Shown one piece after another: positions 52,777 to 63,958 of a stretch of 64,000 nt of DNA (position 1 is the stretch's first letter; every line of letters starts with the position of its first letter). The stretch lies in the sequence record KT454806; one strand, given 5' to 3'. Under the pieces are notes generated by a model. That model saw only the letters and a program-made list of their open reading frames with translations, was not told the DNA's origin and made no database searches. The position numbers and the translations under genes are program-made. The stretch comes from Escherichia phage SUSP2.

Positions 52777-53658
52777 ATGAAAACTATTATTACCGTACTG
52801 TTGCACTCACAGAAGAAAGGTGCTCACCAAGAAGAGTTCAACATTATCCAGTTCCCGTCTGGAGAAATCGGTGGAAACTTCTCCGAAGAACTAGTGACCT
52901 ATGCTGAAAAGAATGCTTCCCAGATTGAGAACGTCATCTTCACTGTACAGGGTTACAACAAAGATACTCTGTTTGCTTTAGCTCTGGCAAAAGAAGCTAT
53001 TGATAAACTAATTCCTCAGAAAGCAACGATGAAGACTGTCATTTTTGCTTATCTGCCAAATGCTCGTTATGACCGTCACATGTTTAAAGGTGATGCAGCA
53101 GCACTGAAGGTGTTTGCAAATCTTGTCAATGCAATGGATTTTGATGCAGTATGTGCTCTGGATGCTCATAGTGATGTTGCAGATAACTTGTTCAAATGCT
53201 TTCAGAACATCCCTCAAAAAGAGGTTGCAGCACACTATGCAAGTGAGCCAACTATTGATTTCTTGGTAGCACCAGACGCAGGAGCAGCTAAGAAGATTGC
53301 AGAGACGGCTAAAGAGGTTGATAAACCTTACGTAACAATGGCTAAGGTTCGAGACCTGAAGACTGGTGAGATTACAGGTATGCGTCTGCTTGACGATGTA
53401 GACCTGACTGGTAAAACTGTTCTCATTATTGATGATATCTGTGATGGTGGTCGTACATTCATTGAAGCAGCCAAGTATCTTCGTGAAGCTGGAGCAGCTA
53501 AAGTTGAACTGTATGTAACACACGGTATTTTCTCAAAAGGTGTTGAAAACCTGCTTGACAATGGGATTTCACACATCTACACTACAGACTCTTTAGGCAG
53601 TTCGAAAGACCGTGGTCTTACTCATTTCGGTCAAGTAACTGTAGCAAACATTTACTAA
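52777..53658 (+). CDS. Ribose-phosphate pyrophosphokinase-like protein (Prs homolog; possible ADP-ribose pyrophosphate synthetase)
   Basis: Type I PRTase PRPP-binding motif VLIIDDICDGGRT; about 293 aa; directly upstream of NAMPT-like gene. Confidence 0.6.
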   Translation: MKTIITVLLHSQKKGAHQEEFNIIQFPSGEIGGNFSEELVTYAEKNASQIENVIFTVQGYNKDTLFALALAKEAIDKLIPQKATMKTVIFAYLPNARYDRHMFKGDAAALKVFANLVNAMDFDAVCALDAHSDVADNLFKCFQNIPQKEVAAHYASEPTIDFLVAPDAGAAKKIAETAKEVDKPYVTMAKVRDLKTGEITGMRLLDDVDLTGKTVLIIDDICDGGRTFIEAAKYLREAGAAKVELYVTHGIFSKGVENLLDNGISHIYTTDSLGSSKDRGLTHFGQVTVANIY

Positions 53659-53667
53659 AATTAATCA

Positions 53668-53689
53668 GGGGCTGAAAAGCCCCACTTTG
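53668..53689 (+). other. Hairpin GGGGCT-GAAA-AGCCCC without clear U-tract
   Basis: Inverted repeat between the Prs-like and NAMPT-like genes. Confidence 0.35.
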
Positions 53690-53704
53690 AGAGAGATTAA
53701 AAAC

Positions 53705-55531
53705 ATGTCTAAATCAATCTATGCAGTTCCAGCAGGTCTTAATGCAGATGCTTACAAAGCTGGTCACATCTACCAGTATCCAAGTGCAACTCAGTATCTG
53801 ATGCTGAACCTTACACCTCGTGGTGATAAGTGGTTCAACACTCCTTTGGAGACTGATGGTGTAGTTGCTTTTGGTATCCAACGTTTTGTGAAAGATTATC
53901 TGGTAGACCACTGGAATGCAACGTTCTTTGAACGTGATAAGAAAGAAGCCGTTGATGAAATCTTAGAAATCATGAATGGTGTACTTGGTGCAGATGCCAT
54001 TGGTCGCCAACATTGGGAAGAACTTCACGACTTAGGTTATCTGCCAGTGGCAGTATACTCTGTTGAAGAAGGTACAATTGTCCCTATGCGTGTTCCAATG
54101 ATTATCTTCAAAAATACCGTTGAAGGTTTCCATTGGGTAGCTGGTTATCTGGAAGATGCTTTCTCTGCTGAAATCTGGAAAGCTTGTACCATTGCAACTA
54201 TTGCATTACATTACAAACGTATCTGTAAAGGTTGGGCTGACAAGACTTGTGACAATGACTTCCATCTGCCTTGGCAGTGTCACGACTTTGCAATGCGTGG
54301 TATGTCTGGTTTCACAGACGATGCCTTCAATGCTGTAGGCCATCTTACCAGCTTCAAAGGTACTGATAGCTTCCCTGCTGTGTATACTGCTAAACGTGCA
54401 TATGGACAGTTCATGACTGTAAGTGATATTGGTAACTCTGTTCCAGCAACTGAACACTCTGTGATGTGTGCAAACATTGCATGGAATATGAAAGACCTGT
54501 CAGAAGATGATATTCACTCACAGTATATTATGCAGTCTGATAGCTTACTGGATGCTAAACGTTGGCGTGGTGAGGTTAAAACCTTTGAACATCTTTTGGT
54601 AGATGTTTATCCAACTGGTATTGCAAGTGTTGTTTCTGATACTTACAACTTCTGGCGCACAGTTACAGAGGTTCTCCCAGAACTTCGTGAAGTAATCCTG
54701 AAACGAGATGGAAAACTGGTAATCCGTCCAGACTCTGGTGACCCTGTACACATTGTTACTGGCTATCGTGCAATTGAGTGGGAAAATGCTAAAAGTATGT
54801 ATTACAAACATATGTCAACCATTTCCCCTAACAACACTTATCTGCTTGATGCAATCTTGAATTGTAGCATGTCAGATATGGGTTATGGTTTCTCTGCTTG
54901 GTTAATCTCTGAAGGTTATGAGTTAGTTGTTGATGCAGAAGACTTTAACGTTGCTGATACAGTTAATCTGAAAGAAACTTACAAGACTGGTAAAGTTGTT
55001 GTTAAACGTATGCTGACAGCAGAAATTGATGGTGCTATCAAGACTCTATACAATATCTTTGGTGGAACTGTAAACGCTAAAGGCTACAAAGTTCTTGATG
55101 AGCACATTGGCTTAATCTACGGTGATTCTATCACTCTGGAACGTGCTGAAGAGATTCTTAGTCGTCTTGCTGAAAAGGGCTTTGCAAGTTCTAACGTTGT
55201 TTTTGGTGTTGGTTCATACACTTACCAGTACCTGACTCGTGATACCTTTGCATTCGCTGTCAAAGCAACTCTTGCACAGATAGATGGGGAAGAAATCATG
55301 CTGGCAAAAGACCCTAAAACTGATAGTGGTCTGAAGAAGTCTGCTTTTGGCGGTGTAGTCCCTATGTGGGATGGTGATAAGCTGGAAGCTGTAGATGGTT
55401 TTGGTTTTGCAGAATTTGAAAGCGTACTAGATAACCCTCAGTGTGCTCTGAAGTTGGTATTCTGTGACTCTCAGCCATATGGCTACGTTAATCTTCGTGA
55501 TGTACGAAATGTTATTGACAGACAGCTTTAA
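53705..55531 (+). CDS. Nicotinamide phosphoribosyltransferase family protein (NAMPT-like; possible Namat)
   Basis: FKGTD...YG...GNSVPATEHS motif matching the NAMPT active-site region; ATG at 53705. Confidence 0.75.
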   Translation: MSKSIYAVPAGLNADAYKAGHIYQYPSATQYLMLNLTPRGDKWFNTPLETDGVVAFGIQRFVKDYLVDHWNATFFERDKKEAVDEILEIMNGVLGADAIGRQHWEELHDLGYLPVAVYSVEEGTIVPMRVPMIIFKNTVEGFHWVAGYLEDAFSAEIWKACTIATIALHYKRICKGWADKTCDNDFHLPWQCHDFAMRGMSGFTDDAFNAVGHLTSFKGTDSFPAVYTAKRAYGQFMTVSDIGNSVPATEHSVMCANIAWNMKDLSEDDIHSQYIMQSDSLLDAKRWRGEVKTFEHLLVDVYPTGIASVVSDTYNFWRTVTEVLPELREVILKRDGKLVIRPDSGDPVHIVTGYRAIEWENAKSMYYKHMSTISPNNTYLLDAILNCSMSDMGYGFSAWLISEGYELVVDAEDFNVADTVNLKETYKTGKVVVKRMLTAEIDGAIKTLYNIFGGTVNAKGYKVLDEHIGLIYGDSITLERAEEILSRLAEKGFASSNVVFGVGSYTYQYLTRDTFAFAVKATLAQIDGEEIMLAKDPKTDSGLKKSAFGGVVPMWDGDKLEAVDGFGFAEFESVLDNPQCALKLVFCDSQPYGYVNLRDVRNVIDRQL

Positions 55532-55546
55532 ATAAGTATTATAAGA

Positions 55547-55568
55547 GGCTCCTACGGGAGCCTTTTTA
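55547..55568 (+). terminator. Rho-independent terminator
   Basis: GGCTCC-TACG-GGAGCC followed by TTTTT. Confidence 0.65.
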
Positions 55569-59698: not shown

Positions 59699-59715
59699 TA
59701 AGTAAATTCTTAAAG

Positions 59716-59738
59716 GGCTGCTTCGGCAGCCTTTTTTA
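59716..59738 (+). terminator. Rho-independent terminator (UUCG loop)
   Basis: GGCTGC-TTCG-GCAGCC followed by TTTTTT. Confidence 0.65.
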
Positions 59739-61497: not shown

Positions 61498-61509
61498 GGT
61501 TATGATACA

Positions 61510-61531
61510 GGCTCCTTCGGGAGCCTTTTTC
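61510..61531 (+). terminator. Rho-independent terminator (UUCG loop)
   Basis: GGCTCC-TTCG-GGAGCC followed by TTTTT. Confidence 0.65.
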
Positions 61532-61719
61532 GTTTTAGGAGATTGTATATGTACAAAACATATTTGATAACAGTCGTCATAAAGGGTGTTGAAATTACCC
61601 TCCCAATGGCATCTAAAACTACTTGTGAGGTAGAGGCTTTGCAAGAGTTAGTTGAGCAAGCTGAATTACTTTATCCACAAGCTGAATTTGTTTATCCAGC
61701 AGTGTAGAGGATACTAAAA

Positions 61720-62067
61720 ATGACATTTAAAGAGTTCTGTCAAGCCGCTTTCATAGTTGTTTTTCTGATTGGTGTAGGTGTTTGGGGCGGTTATTCTTAT
61801 AAGGATTACCAAGTCACTCAGACAGAATTGACTAATCAGAAGCTTATAAGCGTTGCTAAGGATGCTTACCAAGAAGGTTTAGCAAATCTTAGCTCCAATT
61901 ATAAAAATGATTTGAAAGATGTGCTTGCTAAAAACAAACACACAAAAGAGGTATTGACATATGAGAAGACTAAGCCAGAGTTTTATAACATTTGTGCTAC
62001 TGATACTTATGTCAGGGTGTTCAATGAACAAAGTGAACTCTACGTTCAAAAACTCCCAAGTAAGTGA
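61720..62067 (+). CDS. Inner-membrane spanin candidate (Rz-like)
   Basis: N-terminal TM anchor FIVVFLIGVGVWGG followed by helical periplasmic domain; contains embedded lipoprotein ORF. Confidence 0.45.
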   Translation: MTFKEFCQAAFIVVFLIGVGVWGGYSYKDYQVTQTELTNQKLISVAKDAYQEGLANLSSNYKNDLKDVLAKNKHTKEVLTYEKTKPEFYNICATDTYVRVFNEQSELYVQKLPSK

Positions 62068-62230
62068 AAGTGATAAGTACACTCAAGAAGAATCACGCTA
62101 TGTTGTCAAGGGCAATACAGGCACAGACCTGTCACAAGCCCTTGAATTTTATCGTGATGGGTACTATCAATGTACGATGAAAGCCAATAATTTAATTGAT
62201 ATGATTTTGTTAGGGAATAAGCAGCAATGA
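61961..62230 (+). CDS. Outer-membrane lipoprotein spanin candidate (Rz1-like), overlapped architecture
   Basis: Lipobox LMSGC after hydrophobic signal; AAGAGG RBS; starts inside the Rz-like gene in another frame. Confidence 0.4.
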   Translation: MRRLSQSFITFVLLILMSGCSMNKVNSTFKNSQVSESDKYTQEESRYVVKGNTGTDLSQALEFYRDGYYQCTMKANNLIDMILLGNKQQ

Positions 62231-62496
62231 GTCAAGAGACAGAACTGTTCTACACAGAAGGTTATTTACTTCTTCCAAGACCAAAAGATACTTATATGCG
62301 CATTGACTTCATGCCAATGGTTATGGATGATGTGATGTGTCATATCTTTATGAAGGGTATCACAACACAGTTGAAAGATACTGGAAGAGATTGCAAATTA
62401 AAGATTGACACTCATCCAGAAATCAAAGAGAATCACTACACATGGTTCTTAGAAGATACCAAAGAAATTATGGCAGTTCTCAAAACGAGGAAGTAG
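62227..62496 (+). CDS. Hypothetical protein
   Basis: 89-aa coupled ORF. Confidence 0.35.
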   Translation: MSQETELFYTEGYLLLPRPKDTYMRIDFMPMVMDDVMCHIFMKGITTQLKDTGRDCKLKIDTHPEIKENHYTWFLEDTKEIMAVLKTRK

Positions 62497-62654
62497 CATG
62501 TCAAGCAAAGAGAAGTTGATTGAACTCATCAAAGAATACGGTCAAGCACGTTACAACGTTGCTGGAGAAAGCTGTTGTGGTGATATTGACAGTATGACGA
62601 TGTGGGAAGAAACTTCAGAAGCAATTCTACAACAAATTGAAGAGGTAGTCTCTG

Positions 62655-62981
62655 ATGGAATTGAACGGTAAAACCTTCGTAGCTGTCATCCAAGATAGTG
62701 AAAAAGATATTGGCGTAGCACAAGTCACATATGGTAATGGTGAGTTCCTTTATGGTATTGTGGCAATGGTTGGTACAAGAGGCGACACACCAACCTTTCA
62801 TGATTGTGTAGATAAACTCGAAGAGTCTGTCAGGAATCATTGGTGTCTTATCTGGATGAATGAGAAAGATATCAAAGAGCGTTATACTAAACTTGGTATT
62901 GACATTGCTGGCATAGAGCATGTAGACTTGTACGAGTTGACAGAGAAAGTTCTCTTTGAAAAAGGTAAAGAAAATGGCTGA
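62655..62981 (+). CDS. Hypothetical protein
   Basis: 108-aa ORF. Confidence 0.35.
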   Translation: MELNGKTFVAVIQDSEKDIGVAQVTYGNGEFLYGIVAMVGTRGDTPTFHDCVDKLEESVRNHWCLIWMNEKDIKERYTKLGIDIAGIEHVDLYELTEKVLFEKGKENG

Positions 62982-63174
62982 TTTCTGCAAAGACTGTTCC
63001 ATCGAACTGTTTGGACGTGACACAGGGGACTTAAAAGGTCTTATCTCTGAAGAAGAGTTCAAAGCTGGTTACGCTATGCCAACACTCTGTGAAGGTTGTG
63101 GTGGAATCTGGGTAGACCATGAAGGACAGCGTGTGAAGCCTTCTAAAGATAAAGAATCATGGGAGAAATGGTAA
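62956..63174 (+). CDS. Zinc-ribbon protein
   Basis: CKDC...CEGC Cys pairs. Confidence 0.4.
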   Translation: MKKVKKMADFCKDCSIELFGRDTGDLKGLISEEEFKAGYAMPTLCEGCGGIWVDHEGQRVKPSKDKESWEKW

Positions 63175-63175
63175 G

Positions 63176-63958
63176 ATGGGTATTGTAAAAGTCATCAAAG
63201 GGGATATCTTCACAGACTTTGAAAAAGGTAAGTTTGATATCATCGGTCACGGTTGCAACTGTATGAATCTGATGGGTGCAGGTATCGCTGACAAGATTTC
63301 TAAGGGTTATCCAAAAGCCTATGAAACTGATGCTGAAGTCTACCGTGTAGCAGGAGGAAGAGAGCATAAACCTTGTCAGAAACTGCTTGGTAAACTCTCT
63401 GTAGCACGTCTTAAACAAGGTCGTATTGCTAACCTGTACACTCAGTTGAAGACTGGTAAAGATGCTCGCTACGATGCTCTTGAGAGTGCTCTGTTGAGCC
63501 TTAACCAGTACTGCAAAGTAAATCAATTGAAGAAAGTTGGTCTTCCAATGATTGGTGCAGGGATTGGTGGACTTGACCCGAAAGCTATTGTGGTGATTAT
63601 GAATCACATCTTGAAAGATGTTGATGTTTATCTTTACGTGTTTGAAGAGGCAATGTTTAATACTCTGTCAACATGGGGTAATCACAGTGAACCACAATAC
63701 TTTGCAGGTGTAGCCGTTGTCAACGAAGACGGAGTTACCCTCTTCAGGCATCGTAAGAACAAGGTACATCGGAGTAACCCTCCGGTTGAGCGAATGTCTC
63801 TAAGTAACGCTCAAGTTACCCCGCCGTTGAAAGGAAGTATGCAACGTGCAGTGACATTTGGAAGTGAGCCTGATGTGTACATTCTTGCAGCAAATGAGAA
63901 AGATGCTGAAGCAATTGTAGACATTTCTAATATCAAGTTCTTAGCTGCAAAGAACTAA
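63176..63958 (+). CDS. Macro-domain protein (ADP-ribose binding/processing) with C-terminal extension
   Basis: N-terminal GDIFT...IGHGCNCMNLMGAGIA and later LPMIGAGIGG resemble macro-domain Gly-rich motifs. Confidence 0.5.
   Translation: MGIVKVIKGDIFTDFEKGKFDIIGHGCNCMNLMGAGIADKISKGYPKAYETDAEVYRVAGGREHKPCQKLLGKLSVARLKQGRIANLYTQLKTGKDARYDALESALLSLNQYCKVNQLKKVGLPMIGAGIGGLDPKAIVVIMNHILKDVDVYLYVFEEAMFNTLSTWGNHSEPQYFAGVAVVNEDGVTLFRHRKNKVHRSNPPVERMSLSNAQVTPPLKGSMQRAVTFGSEPDVYILAANEKDAEAIVDISNIKFLAAKN

Follow-up and report, generated by a model that had tools for sequence, protein, structure and literature searches.

The stretch of DNA analysed here, to which we refer as the window, comprises 64,000 nucleotides of Escherichia phage SUSP2 (sequence record KT454806; one strand). 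It contains a complete gene for a 260-aa protein in which a macrodomain is followed by a C-terminal domain (CTD), hence the name macro-CTD protein used below, and a pair of genes that correspond to the phage pathway NARP1, through which ADP-ribose is turned into NAD+. The features relevant to the argument are these:

52777-53658, + strand: Prs-like gene, ortholog by synteny of the NARP1 gene Adps (ADP-ribose pyrophosphate synthetase); Pfam Pribosyltran and Pribosyl_synth, TIGR01251 at 135 bits
53687-55531, + strand: NAMPT-like gene, ortholog by synteny of the NARP1 gene Namat; Pfam NAPRTase and NAMPT_N
55543-55566, + strand: terminator-like hairpin directly after Namat (consensus scan)
59712-59735, + strand: second terminator-like hairpin between NARP1 and the macro gene (consensus scan)
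61509-61526, + strand: third terminator-like hairpin, the last strong one ahead of the macro gene (consensus scan)
62974-63174, + strand: gene for a 66-aa CxxC...CxxC protein (phrog_2210), its stop codon ending 1 nt before the macro ATG
63161-63166, + strand: Shine-Dalgarno-like GGGAGA, 9 nt ahead of the macro ATG (direct reading of the sequence)
63176-63958, + strand: macro-CTD gene, a complete ATG-to-TAA ORF of 260 aa (ORF listing), with TAA at 63956-63958
63176-63643, + strand: macrodomain, aa 1-156, with the codons of H25 (63248-63250), N28 (63257-63259) and Q90 (63443-63445) and the glycine loops MGAGIA (aa 33-38) and IGAGIGG (aa 126-132)
63644-63955, + strand: lineage-specific CTD, aa 157-260

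The original prediction had placed an ORF exactly at 63176-63958 and had quoted three motifs from it, and indeed all of this is present: GDIFT lies at aa 9-13, NCMNLMGAGIA at aa 28-38 and LPMIGAGIGG at aa 123-132. Felix O1-like phages of the genus Suspvirus (Ounavirinae), CHB7 and mistaenkt among them, share about 97% identity with the window, and in them proteins 97-99% identical to the macro-CTD protein are annotated 'putative phosphatase' (e.g. mistaenkt_19). The relative in Felixounavirus CL1 is annotated 'O-acetyl-ADP-ribose deacetylase', and the phrog_335 'phosphatase' spans the whole protein (E 2.4e-99). The macrodomain call is already in the databases, as 'phosphatase' or 'Macro domain-containing protein', and the characterisation of homologs dates from 2025-2026.

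Pfam Macro (PF01661) matches aa 25-139 with 31.4 bits against a gathering threshold of 22. The original prediction had named structure prediction as a check on its macro-domain call; an AlphaFold2 model with 20 homologs as input (mean pLDDT 89.3, pTM 0.87) has the three-layer α/β/α macro fold, and the N-terminal domain is a macrodomain. To judge by its family, it is a genuine ADP-ribose-processing enzyme. When the family profile is compared with PDB sequences, TARG1 (5.6e-11) comes before DarG (1.4e-9) and Poa1p (8e-5), the last match being confined to the N-terminal 60 residues or so; Poa1p also has no CTD.

The active site is of a particular type. In the profile alignment as well as in a MAFFT alignment of 39 sequences, TARG1 K84 aligns with Q90 and TARG1 D125 with G131. 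Q90 sits in the NLYTQ motif, which is invariant in the phage macro family. Among 20 family members N28 never varies and the conservation of H25 is at least 90%, and N28 is equivalent to N23, the residue mutated in PhiKZ AdfM. The macrodomain belongs to a phage family with HxCNC and NLYTQ motifs in which Q90 replaces the catalytic lysine of DarG and TARG1. A TARG1-type mechanism is ruled out, since both residues of the dyad are absent; human TARG1/OARD1 also differs in having no CTD. Membership in DarG is likewise ruled out. The protein scores 44 bits with NCBIfam NF048014 (DarG), far under the curated cutoff of 250, and 45 bits with the PADLOC DarG model, as compared to 133 for PhiKZ gp104; these matches are limited to positions 3-149 of 338 and 15-146 of 329, the catalytic lysine is a glutamine, and there is no DarT-binding domain. 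Hence the protein is neither DarG nor of the TARG1 type.

There is a precedent for such a glutamine. TARG1 K84 and DarG K80 have been published as structural equivalents, and Q85 of Streptomyces SCO6735 has been equated with both; SCO6735 is active with an essential Gln85 (Q85A is inactive), and it removes DarT-made thymidine-ADP-ribose from DNA by what its authors propose is a water-mediated mechanism (PMC9411070). SCO6735 and BT_1257, which are Gln-type and ALC1-like, are bacterial single-domain proteins, while HxCNC is specific to the phage/Poa1p group. SCO6735 is not detected with the macro-CTD protein or its family profile as the query, but it is detected with Adpp of Vibrio phage Gary (Gary Adpp, KNV71_gp137), a homolog described below, whose PDB neighbours are as for the macro-CTD protein: TARG1, then SCO6735, BT_1257 and DarG, with Poa1p weak by sequence. 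As far as its residues tell, the macro-CTD protein is catalytically intact; its Gln-type macrodomain belongs to the Tk.4/Adpp family, in the Gln-type branch of the TARG1/DarG/SCO6735/Poa1p class.

Two members of this family have been studied experimentally. The nearest to our protein is Tk.4 of T4 and T6 (the two forms differ at two residues), which is 41% identical to it over 135 aa (E 4e-23); the motifs HGCNC, NLYTQ and P.IGAGIG are the same in both. T4 Tk.4 is annotated with an A1pp phosphatase motif. Like tk.4, the macro gene belongs to a virulent E. coli myovirus and lies among its early or non-structural genes, but Tk.4 is a single domain of 155 aa. Both transposon insertions in tk.4 and a clean knockout make T4 sensitive to DarTG2, and Tk.4 was named AdfM in the HIDEN-SEQ preprint; this role was established by genetics, and biochemistry is not reported there (bioRxiv 10.1101/2025.11.20.689424). 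The other studied member is Gary Adpp, an ADPR-1''-phosphate phosphatase that is 29% identical over 164 aa (E 1e-16). By phosphorolysis the aRES defence splits NAD+ into nicotinamide and ADPR-1''-phosphate, and the latter is of no use to NARP1. Purified Gary Adpp turns ADPR-1P into ADPR, and aRES is overcome by the three-gene operon Adps-Adpp-Namat (NARP1-AP), Adpp being needed together with NARP1 (Osterman et al., bioRxiv 10.64898/2026.01.28.702374). The strain table of the same paper includes NARP1-AP variants with Adpp N27A and H24A, and mutations in Adpp abolish anti-defence (bioRxiv 10.64898/2026.01.28.702374). These essential residues, H24 and N27, correspond to H25 and N28 of the macro-CTD protein. 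Their equivalents are also present in Tk.4, thus H25 and N28 do not separate the two published activities. Adpp proteins are single-domain, of 150-170 aa, whereas the macro-CTD protein has an additional CTD of 104 aa and its gene lies outside the NARP1 operon.

In a neighbour-joining tree that we reconstructed from 39 macrodomains (100 bootstraps), the Ounavirinae proteins that bear the CTD group together as a single clade (97/100), and the Gln-type HxCNC phage macrodomains are split from the Lys-type TARG1 and PhiKZ AdfM (93/100). A specific sister relation between the Ounavirinae clade and Tk.4 was recovered in none of the 100 replicates, which, together with the additional 104-aa CTD next to the single domain of about 155 aa in Tk.4, leaves specific orthology with Tk.4 unsupported. 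The NARP1-adjacent Adpp proteins are monophyletic in 0/100 as well, and they occupy at least three separate positions in the tree. The Gln-type phage macrodomains are one star-like family, repeatedly placed beside NARP1 and with two published activities; that Tk.4/AdfM and Adpp belong to a single family is new. Since its members were recruited to NARP1 repeatedly, the tree suggests that ADPR-1''P phosphatase activity is general to the Tk.4/Adpp family. It follows also that the name 'AdfM' spans two subfamilies, Lys-type PhiKZ gp104 and Gln-type T4 Tk.4. PhiKZ gp104, for which DNA de-ADP-ribosylation has been proven biochemically, is DarG-like, and like DarG it keeps the catalytic lysine in FPTK, where the macro-CTD protein has glutamine in YTQ (Cell Rep 2026, PMC13309987).

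The CTD is modelled with confidence. Its block has pLDDT 80-94 in the full-length model and a mean of 79.7 when modelled alone. The predicted layout is a linker helix followed by six β-strands and one helix, and the model, given its pTM of 0.87, suggests that the CTD is packed rigidly on the macrodomain. It has no match in Pfam or in PDB, and in BFVD none except the SUSP2 ortholog. When 1.84 billion representative proteins were searched exhaustively with a profile, no relative was found outside the phage lineage: the matches were only proteins of the same family, truncated gene calls and one TPR-repeat artefact, and those of the same family were the known two-domain homologs and proteins of about 250 aa matched over their C-terminal part. 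Neither was a separate ORF encoding the CTD found near the macro genes of T4, T6 and phi92-like VEcB, and no match was obtained with the DarG models, including the toxin-binding domain. With dN/dS of 0.044 relative to mistaenkt and 0.26 relative to CL1, the CTD is a real coding domain under purifying selection. The combination of a macrodomain with this orphan CTD is a new two-domain architecture. In the comparison with CL1 the CTD is 53% identical and the macrodomain 80% (dN 0.39 vs 0.15), and the profile no longer recognises the C-terminal half of the Kolesnikvirus protein. The net charge of the CTD ranges from -6 to +4 across orthologs; therefore the idea of a basic nucleic-acid-binding domain is unsupported and a conserved DNA-binding surface is unlikely. 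A fast-evolving, rigidly attached and lineage-restricted domain fits a role in partner binding or targeting, and in our opinion the CTD would be such a module and not a part of the catalytic machinery.

The original prediction described the macro gene as being near the NAD-salvage genes. This holds only loosely: they share the strand and the window, but the macro gene is 7.6 kb downstream of NARP1, and about 17 ORFs and three terminator-like hairpins lie in between. The intervening genes include rIIA, rIIB, a PNK-like gene, the spanins and several small ORFs. The consensus scan returned 12 terminator-like sites where 6.1 ± 2.6 are expected, and the three hairpins in question are, among these sites, the ones with the longest GC-rich stems followed by T-runs. 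Given the hairpins and the intervening ORFs, a location of the macro gene within the NARP1 operon is ruled out.

The NAMPT-like protein is 75% identical to Felixounavirus 'nicotinamide phosphoribosyltransferase', and in the Felixounavirus Bas63 the orthologous pair, genes 79-80, is the one in which NARP1 was discovered and shown to be functional: Adps makes ADPR-pyrophosphate and Namat makes NAD+. Judging from its genus, Bas63 would be expected to carry a macro ortholog. The same gene order and spacing are found in Felixounavirus CL1 and in metagenomic relatives whose Macro-CTD proteins are 34-40% identical to ours, and Kolesnikvirus SB18 has NARP1 plus a macro protein of 260 aa, so that the synteny of NARP1 and the macro gene is conserved across three genera of the Ounavirinae (Suspvirus, Felixounavirus and Kolesnikvirus). 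As an independent test of co-occurrence we looked for a member of the Ounavirinae without NARP1 or without the macro gene, and none was found; Kolesnikvirus, too, has both. Because both are core to the subfamily, their co-occurrence within it carries no independent weight.

In the aRES paper a gene was counted as Adpp if it lies within two genes of NARP1 (Adps or Namat), and Table S1 of that paper includes no Escherichia, Salmonella or Felix-like phage (bioRxiv 10.64898/2026.01.28.702374). The macro gene described here is unlinked to NARP1, which is a new arrangement and one that the published survey could not detect. Of all phage records, 2,763 contain the macro family and 2,029 the NAMPT/Namat family; among Escherichia phages there are 994 and 190 such records, respectively. 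Most of the Escherichia carriers (T-evens) are without NARP1, thus the macro family is not solely an accessory of NARP1. The T4 lineage is not known to carry NARP1.

Given its family and active-site residues, the macro-CTD protein is probably a 1''-ADP-ribosyl hydrolase for counter-defence, acting as an unlinked Adpp or as an AdfM-like eraser of DarT2 products, possibly both; its substrate, its biological target and the role of its CTD are what we infer here. According to the mechanism that we propose, the two glycine-rich loops would hold ADP-ribose, H25, N28 and Q90 would position the distal ribose, and an activated water would remove the substituent at C1''. Where aRES splits NAD+ into nicotinamide and ADPR-1''-phosphate, the macro enzyme would strip the 1''-phosphate, and the freed ADP-ribose would be returned to NAD+ by the phage NARP1 (Adps and Namat). 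The same active site might in addition clear phage DNA of the thymidine-ADP-ribose made by DarT2, which T4 Tk.4 appears to do from the genetics. A dual activity, on ADPR-1''P as well as on dT-ADPr, is plausible.

We tentatively favour the view that the role under selection is that of an unlinked Adpp completing NARP1-AP, and would put its chances slightly short of even. The macro fold and the family are as it demands, the homology extends to proven Gary Adpp with its essential residues kept, and the original idea that the protein could supply ADP-ribose has its experimental precedent in Gary Adpp and NARP1-AP. NARP1 is in the window and is proven to be functional in a phage of the same subfamily; its synteny with the macro gene extends over three genera and metagenomic relatives, family members have been recruited to NARP1 repeatedly, and the A1pp phosphatase motif is annotated even on T4 Tk.4. 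On the other hand, the 7.6 kb that separate the macro gene from the NARP1 operon matter because adjacency is the sole published criterion for Adpp, and the Ounavirinae are absent from the published list. In our opinion the distance in itself is no bar, since any ADPR-1''P phosphatase co-expressed with NARP1 completes the pathway. It also has to be admitted that vertical inheritance alone can explain the co-occurrence in Ounavirinae, that most Escherichia phage carriers have no NAMPT-like gene, and that we found in the literature no assay or study of any Ounavirinae member of the macro family. Further, the closest characterised homolog is not an Adpp but T4 Tk.4, whose role is directed against DarTG2. 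A serious, though doubtful, option is that the protein is a DNA de-ADP-ribosylase like AdfM, which erases DarT2-made ADP-ribose from thymidines in phage ssDNA, and that the presence of NARP1 is coincidental. Countering DarT-type toxins was among the functions originally suggested, and the 41% identical Tk.4/AdfM is an experimental precedent for it, with HGCNC and NLYTQ in common and with the sensitivity of the tk.4 knockout to DarTG2. The glutamine is compatible with hydrolysis of thymidine-ADPr, given that Gln85 is essential in SCO6735, which protects against DarT (PMC9411070). DarG2 combines a macrodomain with a toxin-binding domain, and under such a reading the CTD could bind and inhibit the toxin in the manner of the second DarG domain, or it could target the enzyme to replicating DNA. 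However, there is no specific sister relation to Tk.4, the evidence from T4 is genetic, and the biochemically proven DNA eraser, PhiKZ AdfM, has a lysine and a DarG-model score of which our protein falls well short (133 bits; 44 bits for the macro-CTD protein with the model whose cutoff is 250). The DarG models find nothing in the CTD, whose variable charge leaves no conserved basic surface.

An eraser of ADP-ribosylation on protein or RNA, as made by host ART toxins, mRNA-modifying ARTs or phage ARTs, or else an O-acetyl-ADPR deacetylase, is in our judgement improbable. SCO6735 does act on protein substrates too (PMC9411070), and one relative bears the deacetylase annotation, but such database annotations are transferred and not experimental. 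The TARG1 dyad is absent, the region yielded no ART partner or target, and both of the experimentally studied family members point elsewhere. We give still less credence to two further roles, taken together. In one, the protein would degrade or sponge up ADPR-derived immune signals (Thoeris gcADPR, His-ADPR, N7-cADPR); in the other, a housekeeping role linked to the nearby PNK-like gene, it would clear the ADPR-1''P that arises from RNA repair, as Poa1p canonically does. ThsA shows that a macrodomain can bind His-ADPR; in one metagenomic relative this type of macrodomain is fused to a cyclic-phosphate-processing cREC domain; and a PNK-like gene is located 2 kb upstream of the macro gene. Yet the T4 PNK-type repair pathway makes no 2'-phosphate, hence no Appr>p. 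The degradation of ADPR-derived immune signals, which was part of the original prediction, found no support: in the papers examined there is no report of a phage macrodomain of this family that binds or cleaves Thoeris signals, and the known anti-Thoeris proteins are sponges or RyR-domain enzymes, degradation being so far assigned to the latter. Catalytic residues that are strictly conserved speak against a mere sponge. A Migulavirinae preprint was considered as a source of a phage macro protein and set aside, as its mentions of 'macrodomain' concern host ThsA.

The CTD invites a further speculation, which we regard as unlikely: it may be a new module for binding proteins, and by analogy with DarG, which joins an enzymatic eraser to a stoichiometric inhibitor domain, anti-defence could be two-pronged. 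The macrodomain would clear the product of the defence (ADPR-1''P or dT-ADPr), and the CTD would dock on aRES or DarT2, or on the NARP1 enzymes so that ADP-ribose is channelled. A corollary would be that NARP1-AP is much more widespread than reported, as unlinked macro genes, of which there are at least 263 Ounavirinae records, escape a search 'within two genes'.

Immunity centred on NAD+ and ADP-ribosylation (SIR2, TIR, aRES, DarTG) is being studied very actively, and diagnostics and biocontrol of Salmonella and E. coli make use of Felix O1-like phages. If the macro gene is indeed an unlinked Adpp, every Ounavirinae phage would be equipped against RES-type NAD+ phosphorolysis, and the published share of NARP1-AP among NARP1 phages, 15%, would be an undercount resulting from the adjacency-based search. 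If it acts as AdfM, the Gln-type phage macrodomains would represent a second, mechanistically distinct class of DarT2 erasers. With Tk.4 and Adpp in one family that has two activities, the obvious cross-test is each protein on the substrate of the other. The CTD, a compact and confidently modelled orphan fold, is a clean target for structural and interaction work.

The immediate surroundings of the gene deserve a comment as well. The hairpin at 61509-61526 is the probable mark of the start of a transcription unit, 61530-63958, which includes the spanin genes. An ORF of 63-68 aa abuts the macro start in four other loci, as the 66-aa CxxC gene does in SUSP2, and this upstream gene is a conserved partner that is probably translationally coupled with the macro gene.

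In our reading of the DNA, the 7.6 kb between NARP1 (Adps, 52777-53658, and the NAMPT-like Namat, 53687-55531) and the macrodomain gene (63176-63958) is split into what would be separate units by three terminator-like hairpins. The features concerned are as follows, all on the plus strand:

55543-55566, +, first strong terminator-like hairpin, with a T-run after the stem
59712-59735, +, second strong terminator-like hairpin, with a T-run after the stem
61509-61526, +, third strong terminator-like hairpin, with a T-run after the stem
61720-62230, +, i-spanin and o-spanin lysis genes, inside the terminator-bounded unit that includes the macrodomain gene
62974-63174, +, gene for a 66-aa protein (phrog_2210, function not known) with two CxxC pairs

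The three hairpins have a near-identical core, GGCTCC/GGCTGC-(TNCG)-GGAGCC/GCAGCC. A promoter-like site at 55515-55542 (11/12 match) overlaps the first of them (55543-55566). The third, together with a 54-aa ORF (61543-61707), is contained in a segment at about 61500-61720, where the window has approximately 170 bases more than the close Suspvirus phage mistaenkt, an estimate that comes from coordinate offsets and not from sequence alignment.

The stop codon of the 66-aa gene ends 1 nt before the macrodomain ATG. In four loci of related phages (L002, L004, L005 and L006) the corresponding place is taken by an ORF of 63-68 aa, so the two genes form a conserved pair that is probably translationally coupled.

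In Salmonella phage SB18 (Kolesnikvirus), the syntenic 260-aa protein (P0021; L008:8482-9264) carries QGCNC in place of HGCNC, thus the His shown to be essential in Adpp, the ADPR-1''-phosphate phosphatase of Vibrio phage Gary, is substituted there. Our profile of the C-terminal domain gave no match to the C-terminal half of this protein. The family also takes other forms. A metagenomic protein of 339 aa (P0025) has a Gln-type macrodomain of this family fused to cREC_REC (PF20274, a cyclic-phosphate-processing receiver), which hints that some members may be linked to Appr>p or RNA-repair chemistry. In the phi92-like Escherichia phage VEcB the homolog shows a third architecture: it lies within a 238-aa protein (L012:19752-20468) that is longer by about 83 aa at its N-terminal end; a NAMPT-like gene is absent within 20 kb on either side.

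A point of nomenclature has to be made here. The name AdfM was given independently to PhiKZ gp104 (PMC13309987) and to T4 Tk.4 (bioRxiv 10.1101/2025.11.20.689424), and it spans two different macrodomain subfamilies: gp104, which resembles DarG and scores 133 bits with the DarG model, is Lys-type, while Tk.4 is Gln-type, its T6 ortholog, different from it at two residues, scoring about 30 bits with the same model.

HNH homing-endonuclease genes were also seen, between Adps and Namat in SB18 (L009:2324-2821) and immediately after Namat at L004:884-1369.
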